A DNA stretch of 64,000 nucleotides from an uncultured Thermoplasmata archaeon (lineage in GTDB: Archaea > Thermoplasmatota > Thermoplasmata > UBA10834), in assembly GCA_964568665.1 (NCBI GenBank), contig CAZMPY010000005.1:64742-128741 (forward strand), read 5' to 3'. Each line of letters opens with the position of its first letter. Positions within the stretch are counted from its first letter, which is position 1. Positions 3,031-21,200 of this stretch are shown one piece after another. The position numbers and the translations under genes were made by a program. The notes beneath the pieces are model-generated. The model saw only the letters and a list, made by a program, of their open reading frames with translations. It was not told where the DNA came from and did not search any database.

Positions 3031-3302
3031 GTGTCGAACCCAGGCAGCCGCCCAGTCTGCTGCAGACCAAAAGAAGAAATGCAAAGGGTTTGACACTATC
3101 TCTCGAAACGGTTCCTCGGCAAGAAATTCCGGTCCGTGGAATTTCGGACCACTAGCCAGTCGTCTTCGTGGCACCTAATCCCATTGAACCCACAATAGGA
3201 CCGCAGTCTATGGACAATTCACGGGCATACAAGTTGTATCGATGCACACTCTTCCCACAGAACACTCAGTTAGCATGAATTGGAGCGGCCGTACGTAACG
3301 AT

Positions 3303-3403
3303 GAGAGGCATCGAGAGGGAAGAAGACGGATTGGAGAGGCATTCTCAGACCTTTAAATTCCGTTGAATCAGTATGCCTCTTGGGTCCGTCTCGGATGCCT
3401 CTC
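3303..3403. repeat. imperfect ~100-nt nested inverted repeat (three stacked helices), intergenic
   Basis: gagaggcatc (3303-3312) pairs with gatgcctctc (3394-3403). agacgga (3324-3330) pairs with tccgtct (3385-3391). agaggcat (3335-3342) pairs with atgcctct (3373-3380). A 16-nt direct repeat agacggattggagagg occurs at 3324-3339 and 3411-3426. Confidence 0.6.
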
Positions 3404-3689
3404 GATCTAGAGACGGATTGGAGAGGGAAAAGACGCATCGGGTCTCGGGGCGATTAATCGGCCGTTTCTCGAGTGAAATCCTGGTTACAGAATAAAAAAC
3501 GAGTAAGGAGTTTGGCTCGGAGGTAAAACCACTTGATTGACGAAAAGCCAGACGTTTCGATATGCACACGGCTCCGTGCACACCGCGACATCCGACCGCT
3601 GGTTCACATGCGATAGCATGCACGCGATAGAGGACCATTGCAGTGGAGAGAAGCCCTTAAGCCGTCGAGGACAATTCAGATTCAGGAGA

Positions 3690-3974
3690 ATGGCGATGAA
3701 GTGTCCTCACTGCGGCAAGAATAACCTGTTGCCTTTCGCTATGGTATGTAGATTCTGCGACAATGACATGAGTGAGCCGGCCAGCTCTGCAAACCTTGTC
3801 ACTTCGGACTCTGGTGCGGAGGGCGACGTGCATGAATTGGATAGAATCGCAAATGCGTTGGAGAGAATTGCCTCCGCGACTGAGAAGATTTTCCATCTCA
3901 TGCTAATCGTGGTATTGCTTAGTCTGTCTTCACTGGGAGTCATCTTGTTTATTGGGTATTGGACCATTCCATGA
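3690..3974 (+). CDS. small zinc-ribbon protein with C-terminal transmembrane helix
   Basis: Within ORF 3537..3974. The ATG at 3690 is preceded by AGGAG (3684-3688). CPHCG...CRFCD zinc-ribbon motif. C-terminal hydrophobic segment LMLIVVLLSLSSLGVILFIGYW. Confidence 0.6.
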   Translation: MAMKCPHCGKNNLLPFAMVCRFCDNDMSEPASSANLVTSDSGAEGDVHELDRIANALERIASATEKIFHLMLIVVLLSLSSLGVILFIGYWTIP

Positions 3975-4255
3975 ATGTCTGAGAAGGAGAAGCCGCCTTA
4001 CGCCGTCGTGAACGATTCGGAGACGGAGGAACGGCATTCGAGGAGGCGGTGATGGAGTCAGAATGGTGCGAACACCATGGAAAAGGAGTTTGACTGGAAC
4101 ACTGAATCGCCATACTGAGAAATGGCAGTAGTCAATGCATAGATTCGGCTCCCAGCACTGAATCGACAGATCCTCCAACGAACCCGCGCATCATTCTCAG
4201 GATCGTGAACCTTCAATATGGAGGATATGTTTATCGTAACCAGATAAGATGACAG

Positions 4256-4687
4256 ATGGCATATTCACCGAGGCCCAGAATGAAGAACCACCTAATCGCG
4301 CCTTGCGGAATGAACTGTGGCATATGTCTTGGCTATCTCAGAGATCGCAACAGATGCCCTGGCTGCAGGAGAATGGATGAGAGAGACTCCGGTCATTGCA
4401 GAAAATGCATCATAAGAGAGTGCCTGGTCCTTCAAGACCATAGGCTCAAGTTCTGTTCTGAAAGATGCGACAAGTATCCATGCAAGCGTCTCAAGGATCT
4501 TGACAGGAGATACCGCACAAAATATGGCATGAGCATGATAGGGAACCTTGAGAACATCGAGAAGACAGGCATAAGGGATTTCGTCAAGAAGGAAAGAACG
4601 AGATGGAAATGCGAGAAGTGCGGAAACACCATATGTGTGCATAGGGATCTCTGCCTGAAATGTGGAACAAGAAGAACGATTGTATGA
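4256..4687 (+). CDS. Cys-rich DUF3795-like protein
   Basis: 143-aa ORF. N-terminal APCGMNCGICLGYL motif, several further CxxC pairs, and a C-terminal CEKCG...CLKCG ribbon. Family assigned from memory of the DUF3795 CGxxCxxC signature. Confidence 0.65.
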   Translation: MAYSPRPRMKNHLIAPCGMNCGICLGYLRDRNRCPGCRRMDERDSGHCRKCIIRECLVLQDHRLKFCSERCDKYPCKRLKDLDRRYRTKYGMSMIGNLENIEKTGIRDFVKKERTRWKCEKCGNTICVHRDLCLKCGTRRTIV

Positions 4688-4903
4688 ATCAGAATGAATG
4701 AACAAGAAGACTCTCAGCCTCCAAATCACAAGAATCGAGAGATGACATGATATCGACGGACAACGCCATCGAATTCAAGAAGCTGATAGAGCACTGATGA
4801 GGTCGTCGGTCAGGTAATCTCAAAGTCGGCGCCCTGCACATCACGGTCTCCCTCAAGTCCCGGTCCCTGAATGCGGGCTCCGACATGTCGTGACGGAACG
4901 CAT

Positions 4904-5407: not shown

Positions 5408-5854
5408 CTAGTAGCTGTGCTCCCATTCGACAATTCCGAGCCGGAATATGTTAATCTGCAATACTCCCCCATCGCTCAGTAAGAATGGACACTCAAATTC
5501 CTGCCCTGGAAAGACAGAATACCGGAACGTGATCCCCCTCTCATCGAATCCCTTGAACTCGTGAATCTCTGTCCCATTGGAGATCACCGTCCCACTAGCC
5601 AACTTCACTCCGGTGTCGCTGATGACTATCTCATACTGGACATCCTCTGAATAGCATATGCTATTGACTTGTATCACGGCTTTGTTGGTGAGTCCCTCGA
5701 ATACATCAGTGCATAAGTAAGTCAGTGCAAGTGAAGTAACCACAACAATAGCGACTCCCACGGCAGTCAGCTTGGCCAATCTGAGTCTGCTTTTATCAGC
5801 TGCAGCCTTTCTATCATTTGTTGAATCAACCTGTCCCAACGCCACGCCCACCAA
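5408..5854 (-). CDS. hypothetical membrane-anchored protein
   Basis: 148-aa ORF. Only TTG/GTG starts are available near the 5' end. One N-terminal TM segment (LTAVGVAIVVVTSLALTYL) followed by a beta-rich region. Confidence 0.4.
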   Translation of the reverse strand: MVGVALGQVDSTNDRKAAADKSRLRLAKLTAVGVAIVVVTSLALTYLCTDVFEGLTNKAVIQVNSICYSEDVQYEIVISDTGVKLASGTVISNGTEIHEFKGFDERGITFRYSVFPGQEFECPFLLSDGGVLQINIFRLGIVEWEHSY

Positions 5855-5898
5855 GAGGGAATCGCTCTCGATGGCTTAAATGTTCTTCTCTGGCCTCA

Positions 5899-6965
5899 CT
5901 CTGTAGAAACCCTCTATAAAGCGACATTCTGGGAACGTAGAAACGTCGGCAAGATACGGCCCCTCCTGGAATCAAGTCAGTTCCGGTAAGAGTTGCCTTG
6001 GTTCCAGGATGGACGGCCTTTTGCCGTGGGATGGGAAGATGCCGAACCAGCATAAGCTGGTTCGTATCGTGGCGCGACAGAAGAGGGTCTTGAGGAGGGC
6101 CCGGTACCCTCTTCGGGATCGAAGTACGCGAACCACCTATACTCAGACCACCAACATGTGGTTCTGCTGGCGCTCCGCCAGCACTTCAGGAAGTCGTACA
6201 GGGACTTCTGCGACATTATCGAGGTCTGCACCCCGCTCCTCGCCGAGCTCGGTTTGAAGAGGGTCCCGCACTGGACGACTCTGCATATGCTCTCGAGGAG
6301 GGCGGACACGAGGAGGCTGGAGCGCCTCCTCCTGGGTTTCCTCCAGGAGGCGCGCCTGAGAGTGCTCTATCTGGCCGTCGATTCGACGGGCTTCAGTTCC
6401 ACTTCTGCGAGCACGTACTTCACCAGAGTGCTCGAGTCGAGGAAGAGCAGGCTGGGAGGACACCGTCGAGGTGTCCTGACGCGTCGTCATGTGAAGCAGA
6501 CGGTGGCTGTGGAGGCGAGGAGGCAACAGACCGTCTCGGTGAAGTTCAGGAGGGGCCTATCGAACGACTCGCCGGACTTCTCATGGGTGCTCAAGAAGGT
6601 GCGTCCAGCGGGGCTGCCGGTGAAGTTGGTGGTGACCGACAAGGGTTACGACGCTGAATCGAACCACGAGTACGCCCATAAGGTCCTGGATGCGCAGACA
6701 CTAATCCCGTTGAGGAACCAGGGGGTCGTGGTCTGGATGAGAAGGCGGTATAGGCGGAGGCTTAGGAAGGGGTTCGACGAGCGCGTTTACCATCGGCGGG
6801 TGAAGGTGGAGACGGTGTTCTCGGTGGAGAAGTGGAGGATGGGGCCGGTGGTGCTGGCTCGCGTTTCGAGCCAGCAGCAGAAGGAGCTCATCTTCCGAGC
6901 GATCGCGTACAACTCGTGGAGGTCGAAGACACTCCTTCTTCTCGTCATCGAGGATTTCTACAAAG
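5899..6965 (+). mobile_element. IS5/IS4-superfamily (DDE_Tnp_1-type) insertion sequence, possibly decayed
   Basis: Imperfect terminal inverted repeats: ctctgtagaaaccctc (5899-5914) against the reverse complement of gaggatttctacaaag (6950-6965), 14 of 16 matches. They enclose the DDE transposase ORF. No target-site duplication seen by eye. Confidence 0.55.
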
Positions 6966-7057
6966 CGCGTCAACGGCAAAGTTCATATCTTTGCCTGGTA
7001 TTCTCTGTGTTGCAGGTCTTGGACCTGCGTGGGTTCGAGAGAGGATGGTTAACATGA
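6158..7057 (+). CDS. DDE transposase (IS5/IS4 type)
   Basis: Motifs LAVDSTGF, VVTDKGYDAESNHEY and VETVFSVEKW (D, D, E). GTG start at 6158. The in-frame upstream extension (..KYANHLYSDHQHVV) has no ATG/GTG/TTG and stops at 6053-6055. The ORF reads about 90 nt past the right inverted repeat. Confidence 0.75.
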   Translation: MVLLALRQHFRKSYRDFCDIIEVCTPLLAELGLKRVPHWTTLHMLSRRADTRRLERLLLGFLQEARLRVLYLAVDSTGFSSTSASTYFTRVLESRKSRLGGHRRGVLTRRHVKQTVAVEARRQQTVSVKFRRGLSNDSPDFSWVLKKVRPAGLPVKLVVTDKGYDAESNHEYAHKVLDAQTLIPLRNQGVVVWMRRRYRRRLRKGFDERVYHRRVKVETVFSVEKWRMGPVVLARVSSQQQKELIFRAIAYNSWRSKTLLLLVIEDFYKARQRQSSYLCLVFSVLQVLDLRGFERGWLT

Positions 7058-9180
7058 GTGATAGAGCGGGGCACATTTGGGCAAGAAGAGTATATGGCAT
7101 GGCATTCTGTGCCATTCTGGCCATGTTGGTGTCATCATGCATGCAGAATGCTAGCGCAAGTGCGGAGATAGATGATTCGGGAATGACTGCGGATTACGTA
7201 CTCTGCGGCCTCGGAGCTTTTGAACGACGCATATCCGTGTTAATAGAAGGCGAGAATCTTGGCTCGTACGCAGCCGTTGATGAAGTTTCAGATTCGATGG
7301 GCGGCAGAGTATTGGTGATCTCAGATGAGAACTTCCCCACCGGTATCACGAAGGAATCGTGTGACCAGATACTGAACGACGGTGGCTCAATCGTTGTGCT
7401 TGGAAATGGAGAGGCGCTGCGTGTCATTAATGGACTTCCAGCTGAGGTTCTCTCTCCAACTATCACACTCAACAAGGCTCGTATGTCCATAGATGAAACT
7501 GGGAATGAGACAGTCTTGAGTGAAAGCGTTCCTCAACGTGTTCAGAGTGAAGCAGTTTTCAGCCTTTATTGTATGAGACTCAGTTCTGCGGGGGAAATCG
7601 ACCAGAGGTACATTGAGGTACCATCGACGCGAGTTATCGAGAAGATCGTCGACGTGCTGAGGTGGGCGAAGGAGGTCGCGCCAGACACTACAGCGTTTGT
7701 CGATTCGGCAAAGTCACAGGAACTCACCTCGTCTGCGATTGAAGCAGAGTTACTGGAATCAGATACTATTGGATCGGACTGGACAGCAACTAATACGTAT
7801 GTGTACGAATACTATCATGACGAGACGACCCTGGATATTCACATAGTCATGTACTTCTACAAGCTCAACGACATCTACTCTGGTAATGACTACTACCTCG
7901 CCGAGATTTCGACTTACACATACATTGAGAACTACGAAGCCGAATACACAGGAGGTGTCGGGTGGTATCTCAACTACAGGTACAACAAGGTTGACGTGAA
8001 CTACTATGATGATGTGTTCCACCACAGCGATTGGCTGGAGTTTGGGCCGACCACAACTCTCTCTGGCGATTCAATTACCTACACTGTCGGACTTCAGGTC
8101 AGCAGCGCATCAGTCGGCGGCAGTGTCGGCGTTTCGCGCACCGTACCGAAGCCAGACGTGTACATCTACGCAGAATACAGCAGTACTGATGAGTGGATAG
8201 AATGGACGGAGGACTTCACGAATCCCAGTTATACATGGTATCCAGTGATGACAGAACCTGCTGAAGTCTCCCACTACGCATACTCTACAATGCATTCAAT
8301 AGTAATCCCCATTGACGGTGGCGCCTCAAGCTCTCCGAATGGCCTCAAGATGCCGTTCTGGTACAATTTCGAGATCTGCAAGGATGACAATTTTGACTAC
8401 TACCTCCTAGTCCTCAATTGGGACCATTGGAGCTACACTTTGAATTTCGCGCCATCGTATTCTTCGGGAACTTACACGTCCTATGCATCGCTGATCAGTC
8501 CTCAAGATGGGGCAACCGGTGTGGCCACGTATGTGACATTAGATTGGACTGGGCCGAGCACCGCAGACTACTGGTATGTCCAATGGTACAGCAATCCTAC
8601 CTACCCAAATGGTGCTTACACTACGGCGACTGAGAAGACGGTCAGCCTGGGTACCTCGACTACCTACACTTGGAAGGTCTGGTCGCAGAGGAGCACTGAC
8701 AATGTCTGGGGTTATGCAAACACCAACAGTTTCACGACGTACTTAGTTTCTGGTGGAGGCTGTCTGCTGAAGGGTACGAGTATCACACTGGCCGATGGCA
8801 CAACCCTTCCGATTGAGAAGATACGGGCAGGCATGGAACTGCTGGGATTCGATATCGAGAACAATACGTTTCTGACAGAAACGGTGGTGTACACCGATTC
8901 TTCGAGAGCGGAGACAATGCTGGTAATAAATGACGGCCTGCTGGTGACGACGCCGTACGATCAGCCAATCTTCGTCCGGAACGGTGATTTCACTGGATGG
9001 TTGATTAATCCCGCAGATCTGGAAATCGGTTGGGAAGTCTTCTGTCCTCTGGACAATTTGTGGGTCGAGGTCACCAGTCTAGAGTATGTTGACGGGAGCT
9101 TCAGAGTCTATGATATTGGCACAACTGCACCGGACAACTATATTGCCAATGGAGTTCTCGTCGACCTGAAGAAGAAGTGA
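7045..9180 (+). CDS. secreted/anchored protein: signal anchor, Tyr-rich beta domain, FN3-like domain, C-terminal Hint (hedgehog/intein-like) module
   Basis: ORF 6832..9180. ATG at 7045 (alternative 7054) chosen because it follows GAGAGAGG, lies outside the transposase, and gives the N-terminal hydrophobic segment MAFCAILAMLVSSC. FN3-like segment at 8494-8739. Hint module at 8761-9177. Confidence 0.8.
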   Translation: MVNMSDRAGHIWARRVYGMAFCAILAMLVSSCMQNASASAEIDDSGMTADYVLCGLGAFERRISVLIEGENLGSYAAVDEVSDSMGGRVLVISDENFPTGITKESCDQILNDGGSIVVLGNGEALRVINGLPAEVLSPTITLNKARMSIDETGNETVLSESVPQRVQSEAVFSLYCMRLSSAGEIDQRYIEVPSTRVIEKIVDVLRWAKEVAPDTTAFVDSAKSQELTSSAIEAELLESDTIGSDWTATNTYVYEYYHDETTLDIHIVMYFYKLNDIYSGNDYYLAEISTYTYIENYEAEYTGGVGWYLNYRYNKVDVNYYDDVFHHSDWLEFGPTTTLSGDSITYTVGLQVSSASVGGSVGVSRTVPKPDVYIYAEYSSTDEWIEWTEDFTNPSYTWYPVMTEPAEVSHYAYSTMHSIVIPIDGGASSSPNGLKMPFWYNFEICKDDNFDYYLLVLNWDHWSYTLNFAPSYSSGTYTSYASLISPQDGATGVATYVTLDWTGPSTADYWYVQWYSNPTYPNGAYTTATEKTVSLGTSTTYTWKVWSQRSTDNVWGYANTNSFTTYLVSGGGCLLKGTSITLADGTTLPIEKIRAGMELLGFDIENNTFLTETVVYTDSSRAETMLVINDGLLVTTPYDQPIFVRNGDFTGWLINPADLEIGWEVFCPLDNLWVEVTSLEYVDGSFRVYDIGTTAPDNYIANGVLVDLKKK
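8761..9177 (+). other. Hint domain (139 aa) at the extreme C-terminus
   Basis: Starts GGG|CLLKGTSITLADGTTLPIEKI (block A with Cys1). Ends YDIGTTAPDNYIANGVLVDLKKK*. The usual TxxH His appears replaced (VTTPYDQPIF) and the terminal His-Asn is replaced by Val-Asp. No C-extein follows. Confidence 0.7.
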
Positions 9181-9234: not shown

Positions 9235-9360
9235 CATTACATTTCTCATGTCCCGTCTTTTGCACCTCGATTGTGAGAAGGGATGCGGTCCGTGCATCCT
9301 GACCTTGACAGTTGCTCCGCTCTGATTCCATGACTTTCAAGATTTGACAGGTCGTTCAAA

Positions 9361-11101
9361 CCCATCTTTTACAGTTCATTGAGCCAGCACTCCCGCCGAT
9401 AGCTTGAAAACGTCCTGACTCGATGCCTTCCCGGGATGCATTATGGGAACCTCTCCAAAGAAGAAGGATTCAGGAGAGGGGGGAGTGACGGTCGAGTACG
9501 GCACGGTGAAGGCGCTCCACGCCATCGCGGAGCGGATCGGGTTGATAGACACCGTCAACCAGGCAGCCCCGAAACGGAACGGGCTGCCGGTCGGCGAGCT
9601 GGCGTTCATCATGGCCGCGAACCGGCTCCTTGATCCGCGCCCCAAGTACACGATTGCCGAGTGGTATCAGAGGACGTACATGCCCGAGATCATCGGCATC
9701 GACCTTCCTCCGGACAGCGCCTACCAGACGCTGACGCGGTGTCTGGACTATCTCACGGACGATGTCCAGATGGAGATAGAGATGGCCCTCGCCGCCCGCG
9801 TGATGGAATCGTTCCACCTCAAGCCCGAGAGCTTCATCTACGATGTCACCTCGACCTTCGTCGAGGGTGAAGGCGGGGCCGAGATACTCCAGTACGGGTA
9901 CTCGAGAGACCATCGTCCTGACTGCCGCCAGGTGAACTACTCGCTGTGCGTGACGATGGACCCGACGGTGCCGCTCTTCCACGAGGCGTTCCCTGGCAAC
10001 ACCGTCGATTCGAAGACCGTCAAGGAGACGATGGTCCGGTTCAAGGACAAGCTGGGACTGGACGGATGCCTCGTCGTCGACCGAGGCATCGTCACGAGCG
10101 CAAACATCGTCGAGATTGTCGACGAGAGGAAGCTGGACTTGGTCGGCGGCCCTCGCATGGACAGGCGCTTCAGGGCGTTCGCCCTGAAGACATCGCTCAA
10201 GTCGTTCGGGAAGCCGTTCACATTGAAGGACGAGGCCCTCCAGGCGAAGGAGTTCTCCGTCGACATCGGAGGAAACGACCGCCGGTGCATCCTGTACTAC
10301 AGCGAGGAGAAGGCGGAGCGGGACAAGAAGTCCAGAGACATACGCCTGGCCAGGGTCAAGGAAGGGATGGAGGAGGTGGCCGCATCCCTCACGAGAGAGG
10401 GAGCGGGCCGGAAGCCGACGAGGAACGGCCTCGAGAGGCGGATCGTTCTCCTGCTGGAGAAGAGCCACTGCGAGAGGCTCATCGAATGGCGCCTCGTCGG
10501 CGGCAGGGGCGGTAGGCGCCTGAAGTGGGAGCTGAACGAGGCGGCCATCAAGGAGGAGGAGGTACTGGACGGGCGGTACTGGCTCGTGACCATCCTCAAC
10601 GACTCACCGAAGAATGTCATCGAGACATACCGCGCCAGGGACGCGGTGGAGCGGGGGTTCAGAATCACGAAGGAGACGATCAAGATACGGCCCATCTGGA
10701 ATCACACTGAGCAGCACATCAAAGCACACCTGTTCGTGTGTTTCATCGCGTACCTGTTGTACTCGCTTCTGGAGATCGAAGCGAGGAAGGAGATCACTGG
10801 CATCACCGGGACGAAGGCCCTGGACCGGCTGAGGAAGTTCACGGAGTGTTCGACCCGTCCAAGGTACATGACGCCGACAGGGGAGGACATCGCCCTGCTG
10901 TCTCGCGTCTCTCGCGTGAGATAGTTGCCAAGCGGCCGGCACCCAGAAGTCCAGCGAGAGCAGTCTCACGAGGAGCGGTGAGACCGCTACGACGTTTGCC
11001 TCAAGATGAGAAGGGGTTCATCGCACAGGGATCTCCACGGTTCTCCCAGCGCAGATGGCACAGATCGCCCCTCGTCTCGTGACTGAACTGTAAAAGATGG
11101 G
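9361..11101 (+). mobile_element. IS1634-family insertion sequence (1741 bp)
   Basis: Perfect 18-bp terminal inverted repeats: cccatcttttacagttca (9361-9378) and tgaactgtaaaagatggg (11084-11101). They flank the transposase. No obvious target-site duplication. Confidence 0.8.
9443..10924 (+). CDS. IS1634-family transposase
   Basis: 493-aa ORF with the hallmark YGYSRDHRPDCRQV...FPGNTVDSKT, VVDRGIVTS, and YRARDAVERGFRITK. Confidence 0.85.
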   Translation: MGTSPKKKDSGEGGVTVEYGTVKALHAIAERIGLIDTVNQAAPKRNGLPVGELAFIMAANRLLDPRPKYTIAEWYQRTYMPEIIGIDLPPDSAYQTLTRCLDYLTDDVQMEIEMALAARVMESFHLKPESFIYDVTSTFVEGEGGAEILQYGYSRDHRPDCRQVNYSLCVTMDPTVPLFHEAFPGNTVDSKTVKETMVRFKDKLGLDGCLVVDRGIVTSANIVEIVDERKLDLVGGPRMDRRFRAFALKTSLKSFGKPFTLKDEALQAKEFSVDIGGNDRRCILYYSEEKAERDKKSRDIRLARVKEGMEEVAASLTREGAGRKPTRNGLERRIVLLLEKSHCERLIEWRLVGGRGGRRLKWELNEAAIKEEEVLDGRYWLVTILNDSPKNVIETYRARDAVERGFRITKETIKIRPIWNHTEQHIKAHLFVCFIAYLLYSLLEIEARKEITGITGTKALDRLRKFTECSTRPRYMTPTGEDIALLSRVSRVR

Positions 11102-11235
11102 CTGGAGACGGCTGGTGAATCACATGCAGAGCGTGTCTATTTGTGAGTTTGGCTTGACCATATGACATCTTGTGATACGGACCTCTAAGGGCTCCAGTGC
11201 CCATCCCAGTAATCCAGATCTCGAAAACGGTCAGA

Positions 11236-11805
11236 CTATTGGCCTCGGCTTCGGGAGAACCTGTTCAATGATACGGAGATTTCCTTCAGGTACTCTGTCT
11301 GCTTCTTCTGGTAGTAGTCTGGAGATTCTTCCGAAAGCGTGTCAATCTTGCCCAGAGAATCCCGAAACAATCCCAGTTCCAGGCTAGGAGATAGGGAGTG
11401 AATCTTCCCTCGAATGTCGGCGCAAGCGACTGCAAACCGAAGGCGGTCGAATTTCAGCAAGCTCTCGATTTGCTCGAACTCTCGCGGCAGAAGTACGGTC
11501 GCACTCTGTTTCGACAGAAGTGATGGATATGCCCATTCAAAAGAAAGCCCCTCTGGCTCCGATCTGGCCTGAACGCGTATGTCATACGCAACGCCCTCAC
11601 CTATGTTCTCAAATCGAAGAGAAATAATCATCGGTCCAAAGAAGTTGATGGCTGGGGCAATAACTGGCTGGATTGCGAAATCCAGTTCATCTCTCATCGC
11701 CCTTGCCATGCTCTTCGAATACCATACGTAAGCAGCGGTTGCTACTACGAGTGCCGCCGCTAGAACTGTCTGAGCGACTAGTAGCGCTTCTTCCAGATGA
11801 CCCAC
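11236..11805 (-). CDS. hypothetical protein with N-terminal TM helix
   Basis: 189-aa ORF with a GTG start. TM segment LLVAQTVLAAALVVATAAYVW. Divergent from the HEPN gene (67-nt spacer to its ATG). Confidence 0.5.
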   Translation of the reverse strand: MGHLEEALLVAQTVLAAALVVATAAYVWYSKSMARAMRDELDFAIQPVIAPAINFFGPMIISLRFENIGEGVAYDIRVQARSEPEGLSFEWAYPSLLSKQSATVLLPREFEQIESLLKFDRLRFAVACADIRGKIHSLSPSLELGLFRDSLGKIDTLSEESPDYYQKKQTEYLKEISVSLNRFSRSRGQ

Positions 11806-11872
11806 CTCTCTGCACCTGCAGATTCGTACAAGTACTTTCCATTTTCCTTCACTATCAGATTTCCTGAAGTTG

Positions 11873-12742
11873 ATGAAGATTCAATTGGATTGCAGAAAAG
11901 AATATCGGCAGCTTGTGCATTCAGTGGCACAGTGGTTTGACAGCGAGGGAAGGTCATTGGCGAGCGTAGAGGAATTGCATAAGGACATTCAGGATTTCAT
12001 CAAATTGGTGTGCCCCAAGAAGGTGACAGGGCTTCAAGGGAGAACCGATCTTGAGCTCCTGGACAAGATAATTGGCGACTGGAAGAGTCTTTCGAGGATT
12101 GTTAAACTCGAGGAACCCGCCTCGGAGAGGCTAGGAGAACTGATTCAGAAATGTGTCTATGAGCGGGGGAAACCTCATCCACTCAAGAATACAGTCTGCA
12201 AGAGCCTGAAAGAGTTCAATCTCATATTCTACTCCAAAGTGGTCGTTGAGGCGAGAGCGCATCAGTATGGTCTCGTACATCATGATCTCCTCTTGACCTT
12301 GGACAGGTTCGAGACCTCACTGAAGGACCCCACCGAGAGAGACTACTTCGCTGAGGCAAGAAACTGCATTGGCAACAATCTCTACCGGTCATTCATTGTG
12401 ATGTCGTGGAACGTCGTGATGTATCGACTCTACAAGCTGGTGGAATTCACGGGCTACGATGACTTCATCAAGGCCTACTGTCAGGTCTACCCCAGACACA
12501 AGAAGCCGAATCTGAGCAGCTTGGAGGACTTCTTCGACATTTCGGATTCCCAGGTTATTGAGGTTGCCTCGAACAAGTCAATAAAACCTCACATCATTGA
12601 CAAACACCAGAAGGAGATGCTTCTTAGAAACTTGCGCATCCGGAATATGGCCGCACATGTATCCACTAGCTTTGTCCCGAGGAACGCTACTGTGCTAGGG
12701 TATGTAGAGGAGATTGTGGACTCATTCCTCAGCCGAACCTGA
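11873..12742 (+). CDS. HEPN-domain protein (putative RNase/abortive-infection-type effector)
   Basis: ATG at 11873 (the track starts at TTG 11870). The C-terminal helical domain carries R-N-M-A-A-H (Rx4H, nt 12641-12658) in the context LLRNLRIRNMAAHVS, preceded by the AEARNCIGNNLYRSFIVMSWNVVMYRL helix typical of HEPN. Confidence 0.6.
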   Translation: MKIQLDCRKEYRQLVHSVAQWFDSEGRSLASVEELHKDIQDFIKLVCPKKVTGLQGRTDLELLDKIIGDWKSLSRIVKLEEPASERLGELIQKCVYERGKPHPLKNTVCKSLKEFNLIFYSKVVVEARAHQYGLVHHDLLLTLDRFETSLKDPTERDYFAEARNCIGNNLYRSFIVMSWNVVMYRLYKLVEFTGYDDFIKAYCQVYPRHKKPNLSSLEDFFDISDSQVIEVASNKSIKPHIIDKHQKEMLLRNLRIRNMAAHVSTSFVPRNATVLGYVEEIVDSFLSRT

Positions 12743-13228
12743 ATCCACCGGTTTCTCTACCCCCTTGATGTAAGTGAATCGAGAATCCTGCGGCGTTGTG
12801 CCAGTTCGCGTCATGGACTTGCCTAGCCCCCGTCTGAGGGCTGCATAGACAGACCCTTCTTTCACATGCAGACCGTATTTCTCCTTGAGTATGGCATTCA
12901 CTTCGGCAGCAGTGATATTCACTAACTGGCCTTTTGCGCCAAGCTCCTTCAGGTTCTTGGAAATAAAGGGCTGCCTCGTCCCCCCTCTAGCATCCTTCTT
13001 TCTGTCAGATTTGTCGGTGTCTTCGGGCTTTGCGTTACCAGCTGACAGTTCCTCTTCTCGAATTTCCTGACCTGCTATCGGTCCAGATGACGACAAGGTT
13101 TCCTCGAAAGTATCAATGAGCTCGACTATCTTCTCATTGATTGCGCTGTCGATACTGCCGCTCCCTTCAATCTCAATCTCCGACTCACCGATTCTAAGTC
13201 TACACTTCAGTCGTGGAGTTTCATCCAT
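12722..13228 (-). CDS. hypothetical protein (acidic/Lys-rich linker, possible C-terminal winged-helix)
   Basis: ORF 12722..13252. The ATG at 13228 has GGAGG 9 nt upstream. Its 3' end overlaps the HEPN gene by 21 bp, in convergent orientation. Confidence 0.5.
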   Translation of the reverse strand: MDETPRLKCRLRIGESEIEIEGSGSIDSAINEKIVELIDTFEETLSSSGPIAGQEIREEELSAGNAKPEDTDKSDRKKDARGGTRQPFISKNLKELGAKGQLVNITAAEVNAILKEKYGLHVKEGSVYAALRRGLGKSMTRTGTTPQDSRFTYIKGVEKPVDSGSAEE

Positions 13229-13510
13229 GCGACCATTCCTCCGAAGAACCAAGTTCCCACACAGAGAAGGATGTTCTATGAGTTATTCTTTTCAGTCGGC
13301 CCGAAGGACGTGCCCAACGGCACCGACGAGTATCTTGGCAAGGAGAAAGGGTTTGGGGACAGGCTATGGCGAATTGCCAGCCAGACGGTTTTGAGGCCCT
13401 GAATTGGGGCTCCTAAACGTTTTTGTAATCCTCTGCGTAAGACTCGATTCCGCAGGCGTACGGTTGGATTCCCCACCTATTTATAGAAAGAGCGATGAAA
13501 AGGTTTATAT

Positions 13511-13546
13511 CTCGGTACAAAAACCCTCTGATTGAAAAAGAGCCAG
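13511..13546. repeat. 36-nt conserved intergenic motif, copy A
   Basis: ctcggtacaaaaaccctctgattgaaaaagagccag matches 32678-32713 at 32 of 36 positions. Confidence 0.6.
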
Positions 13547-13708
13547 GCATCGCGATTCAGAGTCGGCTCCCTGCACATTCCAGATACTCCCGACCCGATC
13601 CCTCGCGGCACTTCAGAACCGACAGGGCAAGAGATCACGTCCCTGGCGCAAGCACACGAATCCCGCGAACGGCCACACATCTCCGACAGTCGGAGTGGAA
13701 GTACCGCC

Positions 13709-14620
13709 CTATTCGATCAGACCACGATTGCGAAGACGCTCCCGCTCCCAGGTCCTGAAGTCGACCGGAGGAGCGACGACCTCGGCATCGGGCTTCCTCT
13801 CGAGCCTTGCCGCGCCGCTCGGGCATCCCGTCACGCACAGGCCGCACCCGATGCACTTCGCGCGGTCCACGACCGAAATGCCGTCCGCTCCACCTATGGC
13901 ATGGACCTGACACCTGTCCTCGCATATCCCGCACCCGGTGCATTCCTCGGGGTCGATGCGGGCCAGGTAGTTGGCGGAGGCCACGGAGTTCTCGATGCCA
14001 AGGTCAGTGATCCCCCTCAGCAGGCCGCAGCAGCACCCGCAGCAGTTGCACACATAGCCTATCCCTTTCATGACATTGCTCACGGTGTGGACCAGGCCCA
14101 GCCGCTCCGACTCATCGAGGAACGCCAGCGCCTCCTCCTTCGAGATGGATGACCCGTGCGTCGGGCCCTCGTTCTCCGAGAACGAGAGGCACGTCCTCAG
14201 GGGGAAGCTGCACTCGTGGCCCATCAGCTTCTGCTGTTCCCTGCAGATGCAGTCCCTGAGCGTGAAGGACTTGGACCGCAGCAGGACCGCCTTCACATCA
14301 TCGTACGGGAGTATCTGCTCCGACTTGACCGCCTTCTGGGCCGGGACGACCCTGTGTATGGCCGGCTGCGGTCTCATGATGCCCTCCGCCCCACCACCCG
14401 AGAGGTACTCTTCCACCAGGTGAGCCAGCTCGTGGTCGAGTGTGCTCGACTCGTATATCCCCACGATGAACGGGGCCAGGCGGAACACGTGCTTGCCATC
14501 CTGCTCGTGGCTCCAGAGCAGCCCCTTCCCGACCATGTTCAGGAGCTTCGTGCTCGTCTCTTCAGGGGAGAGTCCCGCGCGCAAGGCTATCGCGTCCGCG
14601 GTCTCATCGTCGCGCCCCAT
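13709..14620 (-). CDS. 4Fe-4S dicluster domain protein with CNCCGCCC motif (true N-terminus probably extends to about 14758)
   Basis: CxxCxxCxxxC motifs (CTGCGICEDRC, CIGCGLCVTGC) plus CNCCGCCCG. The frame stays open for 46 codons upstream of the ATG and encodes a conserved-looking SDIVYENLADALNRLPNGFPRTSTKVEIRILKRLF. Confidence 0.85.
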   Translation of the reverse strand: MGRDDETADAIALRAGLSPEETSTKLLNMVGKGLLWSHEQDGKHVFRLAPFIVGIYESSTLDHELAHLVEEYLSGGGAEGIMRPQPAIHRVVPAQKAVKSEQILPYDDVKAVLLRSKSFTLRDCICREQQKLMGHECSFPLRTCLSFSENEGPTHGSSISKEEALAFLDESERLGLVHTVSNVMKGIGYVCNCCGCCCGLLRGITDLGIENSVASANYLARIDPEECTGCGICEDRCQVHAIGGADGISVVDRAKCIGCGLCVTGCPSGAARLERKPDAEVVAPPVDFRTWERERLRNRGLIE

Positions 14621-14902: not shown

Positions 14903-17818
14903 CTAAGGACGCGTCCTCAGCAGGACATACACCGCGATGATGGCGACCACTGCCGCGGCAGCTATCGCCGCCGCCACGGGGAAGGTCCACAGGGACTCCG
15001 GCTGCGTGACCGGCTCCTCGGCATCGTCCGAGGCTATGCTGATCTCGAACGTGGTCGTCTGCACGGCCTCGTTGCCCGCCTCGTCCACCACGCTGACCGA
15101 GAGCTGGTGCACCCCATCGCATAGACTCGAGAGGTAGATGTTCTCGGCGCCGTCCGCCACTCCGGTCGATACACCATCCAGGGTGTACTCGACCGTGGCG
15201 ACCCCGCTGCATGCGTCCGAGTACCCGAGCTCGACGAGGATGGAGTCGGTGTCGAACTCCGAGCCGTCCACCAGGCTGACGGTCAGCTCAGGCACAGTAC
15301 GGTCGACCTTCACGGTGGTAGAAGAGATCGACTCCAGGTTCCCCGCCACGTCCGCGGAGCGGTATTCGATGGCGTGCACCCCGTCGCCGGAGACCTCGAA
15401 CGAGCCTGCATATGCCGACCACTCAGACCCGTCGACCGCGTACTCGGTCAGGCCGACGCCGCTCGACCCGTCGGTGGCGTCGAGCGACACTGTCACCTCT
15501 GAGACGTGCCAGCCGCCCTCGCCCTCCTCGCCACCGACCGTCGCATCCGTCACGGGGGCATCCCCGTCAATGAGGATCGCGGCCTCGGCTCCGAGGCAGT
15601 CGACCTCCCACGCGAGCAACGATGCAGTGATCGTGAAGTCCCCGAGCACGACTGTTTCGCCGTCCTCCGGGTCCCAAGTCAGCTCCTCGGAGTAGTTCTC
15701 CCCGGGCTCCAGGGTCACCATGGTCACCGCCATGAGCACGGTCGGGGAGTAATCGTAGACCACGACGCCCTCAGAGTCCTCGACCACGAAGTCGAACAGC
15801 TGGGATGTCCCCGATACGAGCTCGACCGCCGCCGCGCCCTCGTTGAATATCCCGACCTCGAAGCCCACGGTCTGGCCCGCCATGAAGGCGGTCCTCTCCA
15901 TGTTCATGACCATCTTCACCTCGTCCGGCTCGTCGTCGGGGACGACCGACGGCGGGGCGACGAGGGGGAACTCGTCGTACGAGTACCCCACTGGGTCGAG
16001 CGCGTACTGGTAGTCGACTATCCCGTCCGCGTCATCGTCAGGCGAGGTCCAATCGGACCAGAAGTTGCCGTAGCCGTCCGCGCTCCACGCGTTCCCCTCG
16101 CAGTCGTCGTAGCACTGGACATGGTACTCGTTGTAGGTGGCCGAGGCGCCGTTGTTGCCGTAGAACGTGTTGTTGTGGATCACGTTGCCGGTCGACTGGC
16201 GCTCCGCGCGGATCGCATAGCCCGACTGGTTCCAGAACCCGTTCAGGAAGACCTCGTTGTAGTTCGAGTCGTAGTCTATGTCTATGCCGGTCGCGCCCTC
16301 CGTGAACGAGTTGTTCGAGAAGGTGCTGTGGGTGCATCCCTGCGCGTATATCCCCAGCCCGCTGTGGAGGAACACGCAGTCAGTGACGTCGTTGGCCGAG
16401 GACCACTGGATGTAGATGCCTATCGAGTTGTTCTCGAACGCGCACTCCGAGAAGGTCACGTTCTCGCAGACCCCCATGAGGACGGCCGTCTGCAGGCCGG
16501 TGTCGAACGTGTGGCCGACGACCTCGAGGTCGCTGCAGTTTGCCAGGATGAGCTCGCCGGTGTCGTCGGGCACCGTGCCGCCCACCTGGTCCTTCACGTA
16601 CACGACCGGCTTGCCGTTCACGGTGTTGCCCGTATCGATCGAGTGCGAGTTCCACTCGGCGAGTACGGAACCCTGGATCATGATGTCGCCATCGGTGAAG
16701 ACGTTCGATGTGAGGGTGGTGTTCACGGACCCCGTCATGAACAGCCCGTAGTCGTTGCCTTCGCAGAGGTTCTCAGCGAGCAGCGTGTCCGTGCAGTAGT
16801 CCACGATCAGGCCCATGTGGTTCCACGAGACGTTGCAGCCCCTGACCTCCGTGCCCTCGCAGGATCCGAGCCTGAGGCCGTTGTTGTGGTTGTCGCTCAG
16901 GCTGCAGCCTTCGATGAGGACGCCATTGCAGTATTCGGCGTTGATCCCGCACCAGAAGTTGCCCTCCGACACCACGTCCGCGACGGTCACGTTGGATGAG
17001 AAGTAAAGCATGATGCCAACAGCGGCGCACGGGAGGGCGAGGCCCTCGACGGTCATGTTGGAGCAATCCGCCAGTATCACCTGTCCGGCATCGCCGGGGA
17101 TTGACCCGCCGTCCTCGCCGCTGAGGTAGTACACCGGCATGCCGTCAACGGTGTTGTCCGTGCTGATGTTGTGGGACGTGGCGTGCTCGATGAGCCAAAG
17201 TTGCATGATTATGCCGCAGCCGGTCATGGCGTTCGCCCTCAGGGTGGTGTTGACGGCTTCCATCATCTGGATGCCCACGCCGCTGGACGACGATAGCGCA
17301 TTGTCCGCCAGGATGCAATCGTCCGAGTCGACGAGCAGGACGGAGGCGCCAGAGGTATCGCACGTGTTGTTCGACACCACATTCCCGTCGGACGACCAAA
17401 GGACCGCACCGTAGGGCGCTCCAAGCAGCTCGTTCCCGTCGACGAGCCCGTTCCGGACGTTCTGCATGTTGACGGACGCCAAGGACGCCGTGAGGGTGCA
17501 TCCGGACACGACGAAGCTGACGGTCGTGTCGGTGAGGGAGATCGCATAGGATTCGGTGGTGGATATCTGCATGTCGGTGATCGCATACGGGTCCGAGGGC
17601 GTGCCGCTGCCGAGCCAGCCTTCATCCGCCGCGAGCGCCGCGAACTCGGCGTCGCCGGTTATCTCTATCGGGTCGTGGGCCTCCGTGGCCGTGACCATAG
17701 ACTGGAGGGGCGCTGAGCCCTGACTCAGAATGATCGATGCAGACGAAATGAATACGAGGAGTGCGAGTGCGATGGCGATTGACCTGCAGAGACCAAAACG
17801 TCGAACATGCTCGAACAT
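14903..17818 (-). CDS. large surface protein: signal peptide, right-handed parallel beta-helix (NosD/PbH1-like) repeats, Ig-like domains, C-terminal TM anchor
   Basis: 971 aa. N-terminal hydrophobic leader. Repetitive N/G/C-rich beta-helix coils. DDDADGIVDYQY motif. Two GW.V..V.V.L.A.D..SGV...Y..DG-type Ig-like repeats. C-terminal WTFPVAAAIAAAAVVAIIAVYVLLRTRP. GGAGG lies 7 nt before the ATG. Confidence 0.85.
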   Translation of the reverse strand: MFEHVRRFGLCRSIAIALALLVFISSASIILSQGSAPLQSMVTATEAHDPIEITGDAEFAALAADEGWLGSGTPSDPYAITDMQISTTESYAISLTDTTVSFVVSGCTLTASLASVNMQNVRNGLVDGNELLGAPYGAVLWSSDGNVVSNNTCDTSGASVLLVDSDDCILADNALSSSSGVGIQMMEAVNTTLRANAMTGCGIIMQLWLIEHATSHNISTDNTVDGMPVYYLSGEDGGSIPGDAGQVILADCSNMTVEGLALPCAAVGIMLYFSSNVTVADVVSEGNFWCGINAEYCNGVLIEGCSLSDNHNNGLRLGSCEGTEVRGCNVSWNHMGLIVDYCTDTLLAENLCEGNDYGLFMTGSVNTTLTSNVFTDGDIMIQGSVLAEWNSHSIDTGNTVNGKPVVYVKDQVGGTVPDDTGELILANCSDLEVVGHTFDTGLQTAVLMGVCENVTFSECAFENNSIGIYIQWSSANDVTDCVFLHSGLGIYAQGCTHSTFSNNSFTEGATGIDIDYDSNYNEVFLNGFWNQSGYAIRAERQSTGNVIHNNTFYGNNGASATYNEYHVQCYDDCEGNAWSADGYGNFWSDWTSPDDDADGIVDYQYALDPVGYSYDEFPLVAPPSVVPDDEPDEVKMVMNMERTAFMAGQTVGFEVGIFNEGAAAVELVSGTSQLFDFVVEDSEGVVVYDYSPTVLMAVTMVTLEPGENYSEELTWDPEDGETVVLGDFTITASLLAWEVDCLGAEAAILIDGDAPVTDATVGGEEGEGGWHVSEVTVSLDATDGSSGVGLTEYAVDGSEWSAYAGSFEVSGDGVHAIEYRSADVAGNLESISSTTVKVDRTVPELTVSLVDGSEFDTDSILVELGYSDACSGVATVEYTLDGVSTGVADGAENIYLSSLCDGVHQLSVSVVDEAGNEAVQTTTFEISIASDDAEEPVTQPESLWTFPVAAAIAAAAVVAIIAVYVLLRTRP

Positions 17819-17861
17819 AGGATTTCCTCCCGAACCGCAGATTCTAACACCGCCCCGGCGC

Positions 17862-17869
17862 TATAAATA
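17862..17869 (-). promoter_or_regulatory. TATA-like box for the 14903..17818 gene
   Basis: Minus-strand TTTATAG about 45 nt upstream of the ATG at 17818. Inferred archaeal-type promoter. Confidence 0.3.
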
Positions 17870-18213
17870 CACATCTCGCCCCCTCCAACTGAAAGCGCTG
17901 GAAATCTCGATTCCACCCCGGGTCGACAGATTCCTGCATGGGGGTGTCGCAGGAAGGCCGAAGGCGCCTGACCGAGGACGGAAGAATTGGCGGAGAGAGT
18001 AGCCTAGCTCGACCCTGAGATTGCGAAATCGGCTTCTGGCCAATCATCGGAATGTAAACGACTCCCTGCACATCAGGCCTGGACCCGCAAACCCCATGAA
18101 GCGACCAAGACGAGTCCACGTCCGAGGCTCGGAGAGAGATACCCTGCAGTGGGATCCGCCAGGGCTGGTCCCTGGATCGAACAGGATTGCCAGAGGAGGC
18201 CTGCCACCATAAG

Positions 18214-18222
18214 ATAAATATA
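18214..18222 (+). promoter_or_regulatory. TATA-like box for the 18281..21835 gene
   Basis: ataaatata about 60 nt upstream of the ATG at 18281. Confidence 0.3.
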
Positions 18223-18280
18223 GCATCGGCACCTGACCAATACTGTTGTCGGTGGTTCGACAGGACGCGGGGTATAGAAC

Positions 18281-21200
18281 ATGAACAGGTCCAAGGCGTG
18301 GTCTCTAGGACTTCTGAACAGCTCGAAGGCACTTGCATCGATCATAATCATCATCGCCCTAGCAGTCACATCAGCGGCTGCTGCGGTAACGCTCTCGGGA
18401 CAGGGGTCATCGGACCGGACCGCTAGCGCCGGACCGACGATCATCAGCATGCAGGCCGACATGGACGAGGCCTATGTCGACCAGGTCGTGGCCTGGCAGG
18501 TCCTAGCATCCGCCCACATCAGCGGCGACAAGGACAGCAGCCTGCTCATCACCTGGGACTGGGACGATGGCAGCTACACCGTCGTCCACGTGGAATACAC
18601 CGTCGACGACTCGATCGTGACGGACGCCGAAACACACGCATGGTGCGAGGCCGGGACCTACGAAGTGGTCGTCTCTGTCTGGGACGGCTACAAGACTGAA
18701 TCGAACACGGTCCACAACGTCTCCGCCGCGACCACGCTGACCGTCCTGCCCATCGAGTCGAACACACCTCCCGTTGCCAGCTTCCAAGTCGAACCCGCGG
18801 AGGGCACTATCAACACGCTCTTCACCTTCGACGCCTCCTCGTCCTTCGACTTCGAGGACCCACTGGAATCAATCTCGGTGCGGTGGGACTGGGAATCCGA
18901 CGGCATATGGGACACAGACTACTCGACGGACAAGTCTGCTGAGCACCAGTTCGCAGCCCTGGGGAGTTACTCTGTGACACTCGAGGTCATGGACAGCTGC
19001 GGCATGACGGACTGGACGTCCAGGCATGTGGAAGTCATCGGCTCAACGACCCTGACGCCACATGACCCGATAGTCATAGGCCACGACACTGAGTTCGTCT
19101 ATGAGAACGGAGTCGTCGGCGGGGCAGGGACGGCCGAAGACCCATACATAATAGGCGGATGGCTGATCGAAGCCTACGATGGGAACGCCATAGACGTGCA
19201 GAACGCTCAGAGATGCTTCGTCATAAGAGATTGCGAGCTCATAGGGGATGTCAACACATCCGGATCTGGCATCTACCTCGATGAGGACGATTGCGCCTCT
19301 GTCGAACGGGTCAGCATATCTGGGTTCTACTTCGGCATCCGTGCAGTGGATTCAGGCGAACTGAGCATATACTCGTGCCAGGTCGAATGGAACGCGAACG
19401 GCATCTCAGTATTCGTAGCAGGGTCCGTCGACATCGGCCTCAACACCGTCTCGAACAACTGCGTCGGGGCCGGGAACGGAGAGGGTATATCGGTCTCCAG
19501 CGGGGAGTATGTCTCCATGTTCGGAAACACGGCGGAGGGGAACCGCAACTCGCCCCTCCGGGTGTACGACTGCGGCTTTGCCTCCATCATCAACAACACG
19601 GCAGCAGGACAGGTCCTGGTCATAATGACCGAGTCGTTCGTGGCATACAACACCATCGAGTCCGGAGGCATGCACTTCTGGGGATGCTCGAACTCGGACG
19701 TCGTGGGGAACGCCATCGGGAAGGAGGGCGTGCTCTCATACCTGTTCGGCATAGAATACACGAGTTGCACGGACCTCAGGATAAGATACAACACAGTGAA
19801 CTCATTCTACTATGGCATCGGGACCCACTATGCCGCGGAACCGCCGACCTACTCCGAGAACGTGGTCATAGAGGAGAACACGATATCCGGCTGCGTCGGG
19901 TCCGCCCTCAGGATATACTACATCTCGAACCTCCTGATAGCTGGTAACGGCATCATGGGCTGCAGTCTGGGCCTCGACATCACTTCCACGGCATCGTATG
20001 TCACCGTCTACCACAACGATATCATCGACAACGCGGTGCAGGCGTCCGAGAGCCCCCTGTGCATCGGGAACACATGGGATGACGGATACCCCTCCGGTGG
20101 CAACTACTGGAGCGACTATGAGGGCACGGACGAGTACAGCGGCGTCGACCAGACGGAGCCTGGACCGGACGGCATCGGGGACACGCCATACGTGCTCACC
20201 TCGGGAAGCCATGACAACTACCCGCTGATGACGCCTTTCGCATACCGGCCCGAGAACTCCGGACCGGTCGCCAACTTCACTGTCAGCCCCCAGGCCGGCC
20301 CTATGGAGACTGTATTCGTGTTCGACGCATCGTCGTCATGGGACCTCGAGGACGATCTGTCGGAGCTGGCGGTGCGCTGGGACTGGGAGTCAGACGGCGT
20401 CTGGGACGTGGACTACTCCACGGAGAAGACCGCCACGCACCAGTTCGCTGACCCGGGATGCTATGTCGTGGCGCTCGAGGTCATGGACAGCGGGGGACTG
20501 ACGAGCATCGCCCAGATGGGCGTCACCGTCATGGACACCAGCGTCCTGACGCTCCATGATCCGATTTACATATCAGGGGACCTGCACTTCGCAGCCGTCG
20601 CGGCTGAGGAGATGTGGGCAGGGGACGGCACCGAGAGCGACCCGTACATCATCGAACTCCTCGACATGTCCGCCGAGTACGCCACCTTCCAGATATACAT
20701 CGAGGACACGACGGTGCACTTCGCGATACGCGACTGCCTGTTCTCAGGAGCGTCCGCGAGCGCCATATACCTGACCGATGTCGCCCATGTGACAGTCCAG
20801 GAAAGCCTGTTCCTGTCCTGCCCCTCGATCTCCATCTACTGTGAGCAATGCACCGACATGACGTTCCTGAACAACGACGTGATAGGCGGCGCCCGCTGCC
20901 TGAGCCTGATCAGATGCACGGACGCCTACTTGGGGAACAACACCGTGGAGGGCGCCGAGTGGTATCCACTGTGCATAGAGTCATCCTACAACGTGACACT
21001 CCGGGAGAACAGGTTCCAAGGGGCCGGCATCAAGCTCGGAGGCTACCTCGCATCCCACTGGAACAGCCACGACATAGACGACAGCAACTTCGTCAACTAC
21101 GAACCGGTGTACTACATCAAGGACCGAGTCGGCGGGAGCGTCCCCTCCGAGGCGGGACAGATCATACTCGCCAACTGCACGGGGATGACCGTGGAATGCG

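Follow-up and report, generated by a model that had tools for sequence, protein, structure and literature searches.

A convergent gene pair encoding a predicted HEPN ribonuclease and a putative winged-helix partner in a low-G+C island of an uncultured Thermoplasmata archaeon

In a 64-kb stretch of DNA from an uncultured Thermoplasmata archaeon (positions 64,742 to 128,741 of contig CAZMPY010000005.1; hereafter, the window), we analyzed a locus of three adjacent genes, labeled A (11236..11805, − strand), B (11873..12742, + strand), and C (12722..13228, − strand). When its maximal open reading frame (ORF) is read from the ATG, gene B encodes a protein of 289 amino acids (aa), which is assigned to Pfam family PF27235 (AF_1680) and is a predicted HEPN ribonuclease (RNase) effector. 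Gene C, the conserved partner of B, encodes 168 aa from an ATG at 13228, with a GGAGG sequence 9 nt upstream. The two genes converge and overlap at their 3′ ends by 21 nt (12722..12742), with the stop codon of B at 12740-12742 and that of C at 12722-12724. Gene A encodes a membrane-anchored orphan protein of 189 aa and is a neighbor outside the conserved pair; it is divergent from B, with a 67-nt spacer between its start (11805) and the B ATG (11873). A preliminary description, made from the sequence alone, had given these ORF coordinates, the spacer, the overlap, and the position of an RNMAAH motif in B (12641-12658), all of which match the sequence.

RNMAAH is the sole Rx4H motif of B (residues 257-262; 12641..12658, + strand; codons CGG AAT ATG GCC GCA CAT). 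It lies in the C-terminal HEPN domain (residues ~136-289; 12278..12739, + strand), and the protein ends 27 residues after it. A lone Rx4H motif is expected by chance in about one-third of proteins of this size, so the motif is meaningful because it is invariant across homologues, not from its mere presence. An exhaustive profile search with B returned 616 representative proteins at an E value of ≤1e-3, only ~20 of which match over the full length; the others share the C-terminal ~140 residues alone. Across 149 of these relatives, compiled in a broader profile (A4), W179, R257, and H262 are invariant and E161, C165, R172, D219, and N258 are nearly so. R257, N258, and H262 are all invariant in the 36-sequence alignment that underlies a profile of the HEPN domain only (A5). 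Almost everywhere in the family, the motif reads L..RN..aHP.

When A, B, and C were scanned directly against Pfam, NCBIfam, and PHROGs, no meaningful family was found. The direct matches of use for B are one weak match in the Protein Data Bank (PDB) and one to the PADLOC model PD-T7-3 (E = 2e-5), the latter covering positions 6-55 only of a 432-position model. The same PADLOC model is matched by 73 of the 149 relatives (best E value, 4.8e-12), a few of which also match the PADLOC Csx1/Csm6 CARF-HEPN models. Further matches among these relatives are to DUF4145 (nine proteins), HEPN_RiboL-PSP (four), the Swt1 HEPN domain (one), and the Cthe_2314 HEPN domain (one). PD-T7-3 has been renamed DARNA. 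For this dodecameric abortive-infection (Abi) protein of ~456 aa, experiments have shown that binding of single-stranded DNA (ssDNA) by the C-terminal domain prompts the N-terminal HEPN domain (R117x4H122) to cleave tRNAs in their anticodon loops (bioRxiv 10.64898/2026.02.22.705581). At the structural level, profile A5 matches the "Dandelion-hepn" entry 9wx2 of the PDB (E = 1.5e-7 over 117 positions). This match brings the two Rx4H motifs into line, the RN..aHP of the B family aligning with R-H-L-S-A-H-P of the solved domain. Profile A4 matches the full-length "Dandelion" entry 9wxf, which has 12 chains (E = 8.5e-9). From the PADLOC model matches, the protein length, and the 12-chain assembly, we infer that Dandelion is DARNA.

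Based on the invariant motif and the matches to PD-T7-3, Dandelion, and other HEPN families, B is, as judged from its sequence, a genuine HEPN protein with an intact catalytic motif and is kin to DARNA and to DUF4145-like groups. The HEPN domain and Rx4H motif proposed in the preliminary description thus hold (PADLOC, E = 2e-5; Dandelion HEPN, E = 1.5e-7), but the suggested Abi/Swt1-like kind does not, DARNA/PD-T7-3 and DUF4145-like proteins being closest. In a collection of 5.8 billion proteins, seven close homologues of B (39 to 100% identity) were found, all carrying a precomputed PF27235 (AF_1680) annotation. One of them, P0001, is 100% identical to B from V18 onward, and the membership of B in PF27235 is taken from the precomputed annotation of P0001 and of the six further homologues. 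Literature searches on AF_1680/PF27235, and on "Dandelion" as a defense system, returned nothing relevant.

The HEPN domain of B also occurs in fused form. Twenty-two of the 149 relatives are ~430-aa tyrosine recombinase fusions (e.g., P0019, P0025, P0033, and P0042), in which a Phage_integrase domain and a SAM-like N-terminal domain are followed by the HEPN domain at the C terminus; an integrase bearing its own RNase toxin domain is unusual. In another relative, P0131, the HEPN domain is fused to HATPase_c_3.

Translation of B probably does not begin at the ATG at 11873, and the first 17 to 28 residues are probably untranslated. Gene callers start B at GTG 11924 (272 aa), and homologues begin at the position of TTG 11957 (two of them exactly there), which would give 261 aa and is preceded by GAGGG 9-13 nt upstream. 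Residues 1-27 have predicted local distance difference test (pLDDT) values below 50, and homologues have no counterpart to them. A copy of the TATA-like 10-mer GAAAAGAATA at 11895-11904 falls inside the ORF read from ATG 11873, which also counts against that start. GTG 11924 or TTG 11957 is more likely the real one.

In front of the HEPN domain, B carries a helical domain of four long helices (residues ~30-134; 11960..12274, + strand). Its conservation is confined to the AF_1680 subfamily of full-length proteins, and it resembles no known family. A region of ~220 aa had been left unassigned here in the preliminary description; it is indeed unmatched, but it comprises only ~105 residues (30-135), the HEPN domain accounting for residues ~136-289. 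This N-terminal domain may serve in regulation, oligomerization, or partner binding. The AlphaFold2 model of B is all-helical, with a mean pLDDT of 80 and values of 81 to 96 over most of the HEPN part (residues 141-260).

Protein C has four parts, which are, from the N to the C terminus, a small domain, a linker that is disordered and acidic, the motif KKDxRGGxR, and a winged helix. Its N-terminal ~46 residues (residues 1-46; 13091..13228, − strand) are conserved and form a beta-hairpin and a helix in a low-confidence model; they are a candidate for the B-binding part. The linker (residues 48-76) is disordered and acidic, with a pI of 4.3, and is followed by KKDARGGTR (12974..13000, − strand), a basic RGG-like motif in which K77, K78, R81, G82, G83, and R85 are invariant. 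Residues 87-153 (12770..12970, − strand) are predicted by AlphaFold2 to adopt the helix-helix-helix-strand-strand layout of a winged helix, with a pLDDT of ~85. Foldseek searches with this part returned winged-helix domains only (I73R, PagR, Fur/PerR/Zur, and PadR), at a probability of ~1 and template modeling scores of ≤0.72, with E values of just ~0.04 to 0.5. No sequence family was matched by C in Pfam, NCBIfam, PADLOC, or PHROGs. The acidic/Lys-rich character (pI 5.3, with 30 D+E and 15 K) and the winged-helix end proposed for C in the preliminary description are borne out by these data. So is the reported lack of an MNT partner, as neither A nor C matches a nucleotidyltransferase in Pfam, NCBIfam, or PADLOC.

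The C family counts seven proteins in the 5.8 billion, which makes it no more common than the B subfamily, and all seven are encoded convergently to an AF_1680 gene. Homologues of C are likewise encoded convergently to two distant homologues of B (~30% identical) in loci L021 and L025 (hhalign, 99.2%, and hmmsearch, E = 2.3e-20, respectively). Altogether, B and C lie tail to tail in 10 of 10 distinct loci that hold a C homologue, overlapping by 4 to 21 nt in nine of them and separated by a 13-nt gap in L003, and C stands beside B in 10 of the 12 distinct B-family loci with downstream sequence. In an all-against-all BLAST comparison of nine loci, only B and C were common to the loci, save for one weak integrase match. 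The divergences of B and C correlate (r = 0.85 over 36 pairs). No C homologues were found beside the distant HEPN-only relatives in L016-L019.

Gene A does not share in this linkage. In the preliminary description, all three genes had been grouped into one module, and a system in which membrane-anchored A acts with B and C would fit the divergent arrangement of A and B around a short shared upstream region as well as the same low G+C content in all three genes. However, A has a single homologue in the 5.8 billion proteins (P0009, 75% identical), whose divergent neighbor encodes a zinc-ribbon protein and not B, and none of the B-C loci with which this one was compared has an A-like gene. What lies upstream of B changes from locus to locus; among others, an McrB-N-domain protein is encoded directly upstream in L001 and a DUF8156 protein in L006, L008, and L009. 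The three genes occur together nowhere else, and it is B and C alone that co-occur (10 of 12 loci). A three-gene system is thereby effectively refuted; the conserved unit is the two genes B and C, and A is a neighbor rather than a component. As for A itself, one strongly hydrophobic N-terminal segment (Kyte-Doolittle 19-residue maximum of 2.18, centered on residue 16) agrees with the transmembrane anchor noted earlier. Gene callers start A at Met33, which drops this segment; the longer, membrane-anchored form is more likely, since the sole homologue P0009 keeps the hydrophobic N-terminal segment.

Upstream of both B and C, the window carries the 10-mer GAAAAGAATA. One copy (11895..11904, + strand) has its 5′ end 62 nt upstream of TTG 11957, and another (13284..13293, − strand) lies in sense orientation with its 5′ end 65 nt upstream of the C ATG. 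With a third copy at 25813-25822 (+ strand), the 10-mer occurs three times in 64 kb, versus 0.03 expected, and it could represent a TATA-like promoter element or an operator common to the two genes. Neither the 10-mer nor another conserved upstream element shared by B and C was found in eight other homologous loci. An operator conserved between the B and C promoters was considered as a candidate and rejected, the shared 10-mer being present in this window only.

These promoter data bear on an account in which B is a self-contained, DARNA-like Abi RNase that senses its trigger through its own N-terminal domain, and C is solely a transcriptional controller. Akin to the C-proteins of restriction-modification (R-M) systems, C would then set the timing and level of B expression after element entry into a new cell without touching B. 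Separate promoters and convergent genes are found in many R-M gene pairs. Such an account would also fit the single-gene operation of DARNA, the winged helix of C, with fold matches that include the Fur, PerR, and PadR repressors, the placement of GAAAAGAATA ahead of both starts, and the existence of sister-clade B homologues that have no C. Against it, the 10-mer is missing upstream in the eight other loci, and a simple repressor would not need the other conserved parts of C (the N-terminal domain, the acidic linker, and the RGG motif). The strict co-inheritance and correlated divergence of the two proteins suggest a tighter functional tie. We consider control of transcription as the only role of C to be unlikely, although it is the leading alternative to the reading given below.

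The sister-clade loci in question, L020 and L023/L024, carry small co-directional upstream genes in place of C, and by eye some of the encoded proteins have winged-helix-looking ends. In L023 (2546-3504) and L024, a co-directional operon whose genes overlap by 4 nt ends with the B homologue, and the upstream proteins of 152 and 165 aa have winged-helix-looking C termini; this may be an analogous, nonhomologous partner arrangement. In L020 (3337-4175, − strand), two proteins are encoded convergently to the B homologue. One, of 114 aa, has a DGNHR motif of ParB/Srx-like type; the other, of 163 aa, has an Rx4H motif of its own (RNSLMH) and is a probable second HEPN protein. A gene for a type IIG R-M enzyme adjoins them.

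The B-C pair stands at the end of a ~30-kb low-G+C island that runs from ~48 kb on contig C5 to ~13.4 kb in the window. The G+C content is 0.51 for A, 0.49 for B, and 0.50 for C, versus 0.59 for the window, and it rises to 0.60-0.66 just downstream. Among the island genes are AbiEii, a HATPase_c_3 protein (GHKL-type ATPase domain), an SNF2/radical-SAM cassette, a Schlafen-type helicase, and two insertion sequences (IS). The nearest IS (9356..11106, + strand; DDE_Tnp_1 transposase at 9443-10924; inverted repeats at 9356-9378 and 11084-11106) ends ~130 nt from the 3′ end of A and, with a G+C content of 0.61, is richer in G+C than the island genes. The preliminary description was thus right to place the locus in a low-G+C island beside an IS (genes at 0.49-0.51), and the setting, with its AbiEii, SNF2/radical-SAM, and Schlafen-type genes, is read here as an acquired defense island. 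No integrase was found near the pair in its own window.

The part of the island that precedes the window (L022:3000-19742; C5 ~48.0-64.7 kb of the same genome) holds, in L022 coordinates, AbiEii at 3817-4752 with a likely AbiEi upstream, the HATPase_c_3 protein at 6116-7717, and an SNF2 helicase at 12727-14226, followed by a B12-binding radical-SAM enzyme at 15247-16512. A Schlafen-group-3-type helicase lies at 16993-19164 and has the higher G+C level of the host.

At other loci, the surroundings of the pair are likewise mobile or defense related. Integrases flank it in L001, L013, L014, and L025, a type I R-M system adjoins it in L003, and the McrB-N-domain protein of L001 was mentioned above. 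The pair is best explained as cargo on archaeal integrative elements and defense islands. In L025 (1-3025), an integrase-like gene, a ubiquitin-like/E2 (UQ_con) gene, and a JAB-peptidase gene stand beside B and C, the E2/JAB set being reminiscent of bacterial ubiquitin-like (Bil-type) defense operons. In L013, from a Methanomassiliicoccaceae metagenome-assembled genome (MAG), a 206-aa rolling-circle-Rep-like protein (motifs FLTLTLK and HIHAVM, recognized by eye only) is encoded upstream of B at 3050-3670, and a tyrosine-integrase gene at 5645-6795 is apparently split into two frames; this setting suggests a small integrated plasmid or virus.

Such neighbors raise the question of whether the pair is an addiction module, acting by postsegregational killing to stabilize small integrative elements or plasmids, with no antiviral role. 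The integrases beside the pair at four loci, the Rep-like gene of L013 (by eye), and the 22 of 149 HEPN relatives that are fused to tyrosine integrases all speak for this. On the other hand, the pair is also found beside R-M systems and in defense-gene islands with no integrase in view, its own window included, and addiction and defense can coexist. An exclusively stabilizing role is rated as improbable.

The distribution of the family is sparse. Of 49 genomes of the order, one has a full-length B gene, as does one of the 401 that were sampled across the phylum; one further B locus could be placed, in a Methanomassiliicoccaceae MAG. The host genome encodes the archaeal TATA-binding protein (TBP), whereas neither McrA nor an SSU rRNA was found in the MAG, which is ~90% complete. 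Some HEPN proteins, such as Las1 and Swt1, serve RNA maturation (Anantharaman et al. 2013, PMC3710099), and by that precedent the HEPN domain of B could act in housekeeping or element-specific RNA processing or binding instead of as a toxin, with the adjacency of C reflecting passive hitchhiking. The extremely patchy distribution, foreign composition, and defense-island context, together with the intact catalytic triad, argue otherwise, and ten independent loci keep the tail-to-tail pair while their other neighbors change. A nontoxic role is regarded as very unlikely.

Compared with known systems, B is closest to DARNA/PD-T7-3. Their HEPN domains are homologous, and both the first helices (E..C/Y.R.A.VM.W) and the Rx4H motif line up; by analogy, a similar catalytic chemistry and Abi logic would be expected for B. 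However, the HEPN domain of DARNA lies at the N terminus, ahead of a ~300-aa Pds5-like ssDNA-sensing domain, whereas in B it is C-terminal, with an unrelated ~105-aa helical domain in front and the ssDNA-sensing domain absent. DARNA is a one-gene bacterial (Escherichia coli) system; B is archaeal and has a conserved separate partner in 10 loci. With its reversed domain order and separate partner, B falls outside DARNA. Proteins with DUF4145 (PF13643) share the L..RN..aHP motif style and recur as weak matches among the relatives of B (9 of 149; best E value, 3.9e-4), and they too are found in R-M and defense neighborhoods (Anantharaman et al. 2013, PMC3710099). In contrast, B itself scores no DUF4145 match, and DUF4145 usually occurs in fusions with restriction endonuclease or helicase modules, with no C-type winged-helix partner described.

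Among two-gene systems, the HEPN-MNT (HepT-MntA) pairs resemble the proposed B-C module in that a small HEPN RNase is restrained by the product of a neighboring gene, and they are frequent in archaea and on mobile DNA. They differ in that the partner here is not a nucleotidyltransferase (GSx10DxD type), the HEPN domain of B is not of the DUF86 type, and the genes are convergent rather than in an operon. AbiE (AbiEi and AbiEii, a type IV toxin-antitoxin [TA]/Abi system) also pairs a winged-helix protein with a toxin, as proposed for B-C, and has both Abi and mobile-element-stabilizing roles, and an AbiEii gene lies in the same island. Unlike in B-C, however, the AbiE toxin is a nucleotidyltransferase, the winged helix of AbiEi is N-terminal, and AbiEi is cotranscribed with the toxin; C has no sequence similarity to AbiEi in the Pfam and PADLOC libraries. 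Generic type II TA systems are similar in having adjacent small genes and a DNA-binding-type domain such as that in C, but they form operons instead of converging. In PADLOC-DB v2, A and C have no match, B has just the partial PD-T7-3 match, and no catalogued system is complete. The B family is already in Pfam (PF27235) and hence is not new. The B-C pairing and the architecture of C, in contrast, appear to be undescribed in the libraries and literature searched.

Taken together, we read B-C as a two-gene HEPN toxin/Abi module in which C restrains B in a TA-like manner and from which A is excluded, and we assign this reading a probability of roughly 0.55. B would be the effector, combining its N-terminal four-helix domain with a DARNA/PD-T7-3-type HEPN RNase domain. 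Like other HEPN enzymes, it would dimerize, two Rx4H motifs forming one active site. By analogy with DARNA, its target would be cellular RNA, with the anticodon loops of tRNAs as the likeliest cleavage sites, and it would be toxic by halting growth. C would be an obligate regulator, transcribed from its own promoter toward B, that keeps B inactive as an antitoxin does, presumably through physical interaction. It may also read a nucleic acid signal or repress promoters through its winged helix. If C were lost, titrated, or degraded, whether upon virus infection or upon loss of the element, B would be freed, resulting in abortive infection, postsegregational arrest, or both.

Several points weigh against this reading. 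The convergent, separately transcribed layout is unusual for type II TA pairs. DARNA needs no partner, and B might regulate itself through its N-terminal domain. As the sister-clade loci L020 and L023/L024 have no C, B can exist without this partner, and the evidence for pairing comes from only ~10 independent loci. Furthermore, local Pfam and NCBIfam searches gave no HEPN match for B itself, and no HEPN structure was matched significantly when the whole two-domain model was searched with Foldseek against PDB and BFVD.

A more far-reaching proposal, which we put forward tentatively and hold to be less probable than not by a clear degree, is that B-C constitutes an uncatalogued archaeal immune system. 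Here, a DARNA-type HEPN tRNase would have lost its fused ssDNA sensor and would take its input from the separate protein C, which would both silence the nuclease and read a viral nucleic acid or protein cue, and the tail-to-tail 3′ ends would add control by antisense RNA or transcriptional interference.

The pair is a variation on a well-known HEPN toxin theme and is rare, so that the expected pay-off is moderate. Nevertheless, it is a compact, clonable candidate, in which the closest characterized relative of the effector is a tRNA-cutting Abi enzyme and the partner, C, has no described counterpart. If the proposed module is real, it would represent a HEPN nuclease that is controlled by a separate winged-helix/RGG protein, and not by a fused sensor, an MNT protein, or an RNA, and it would provide a function for Pfam family PF27235.

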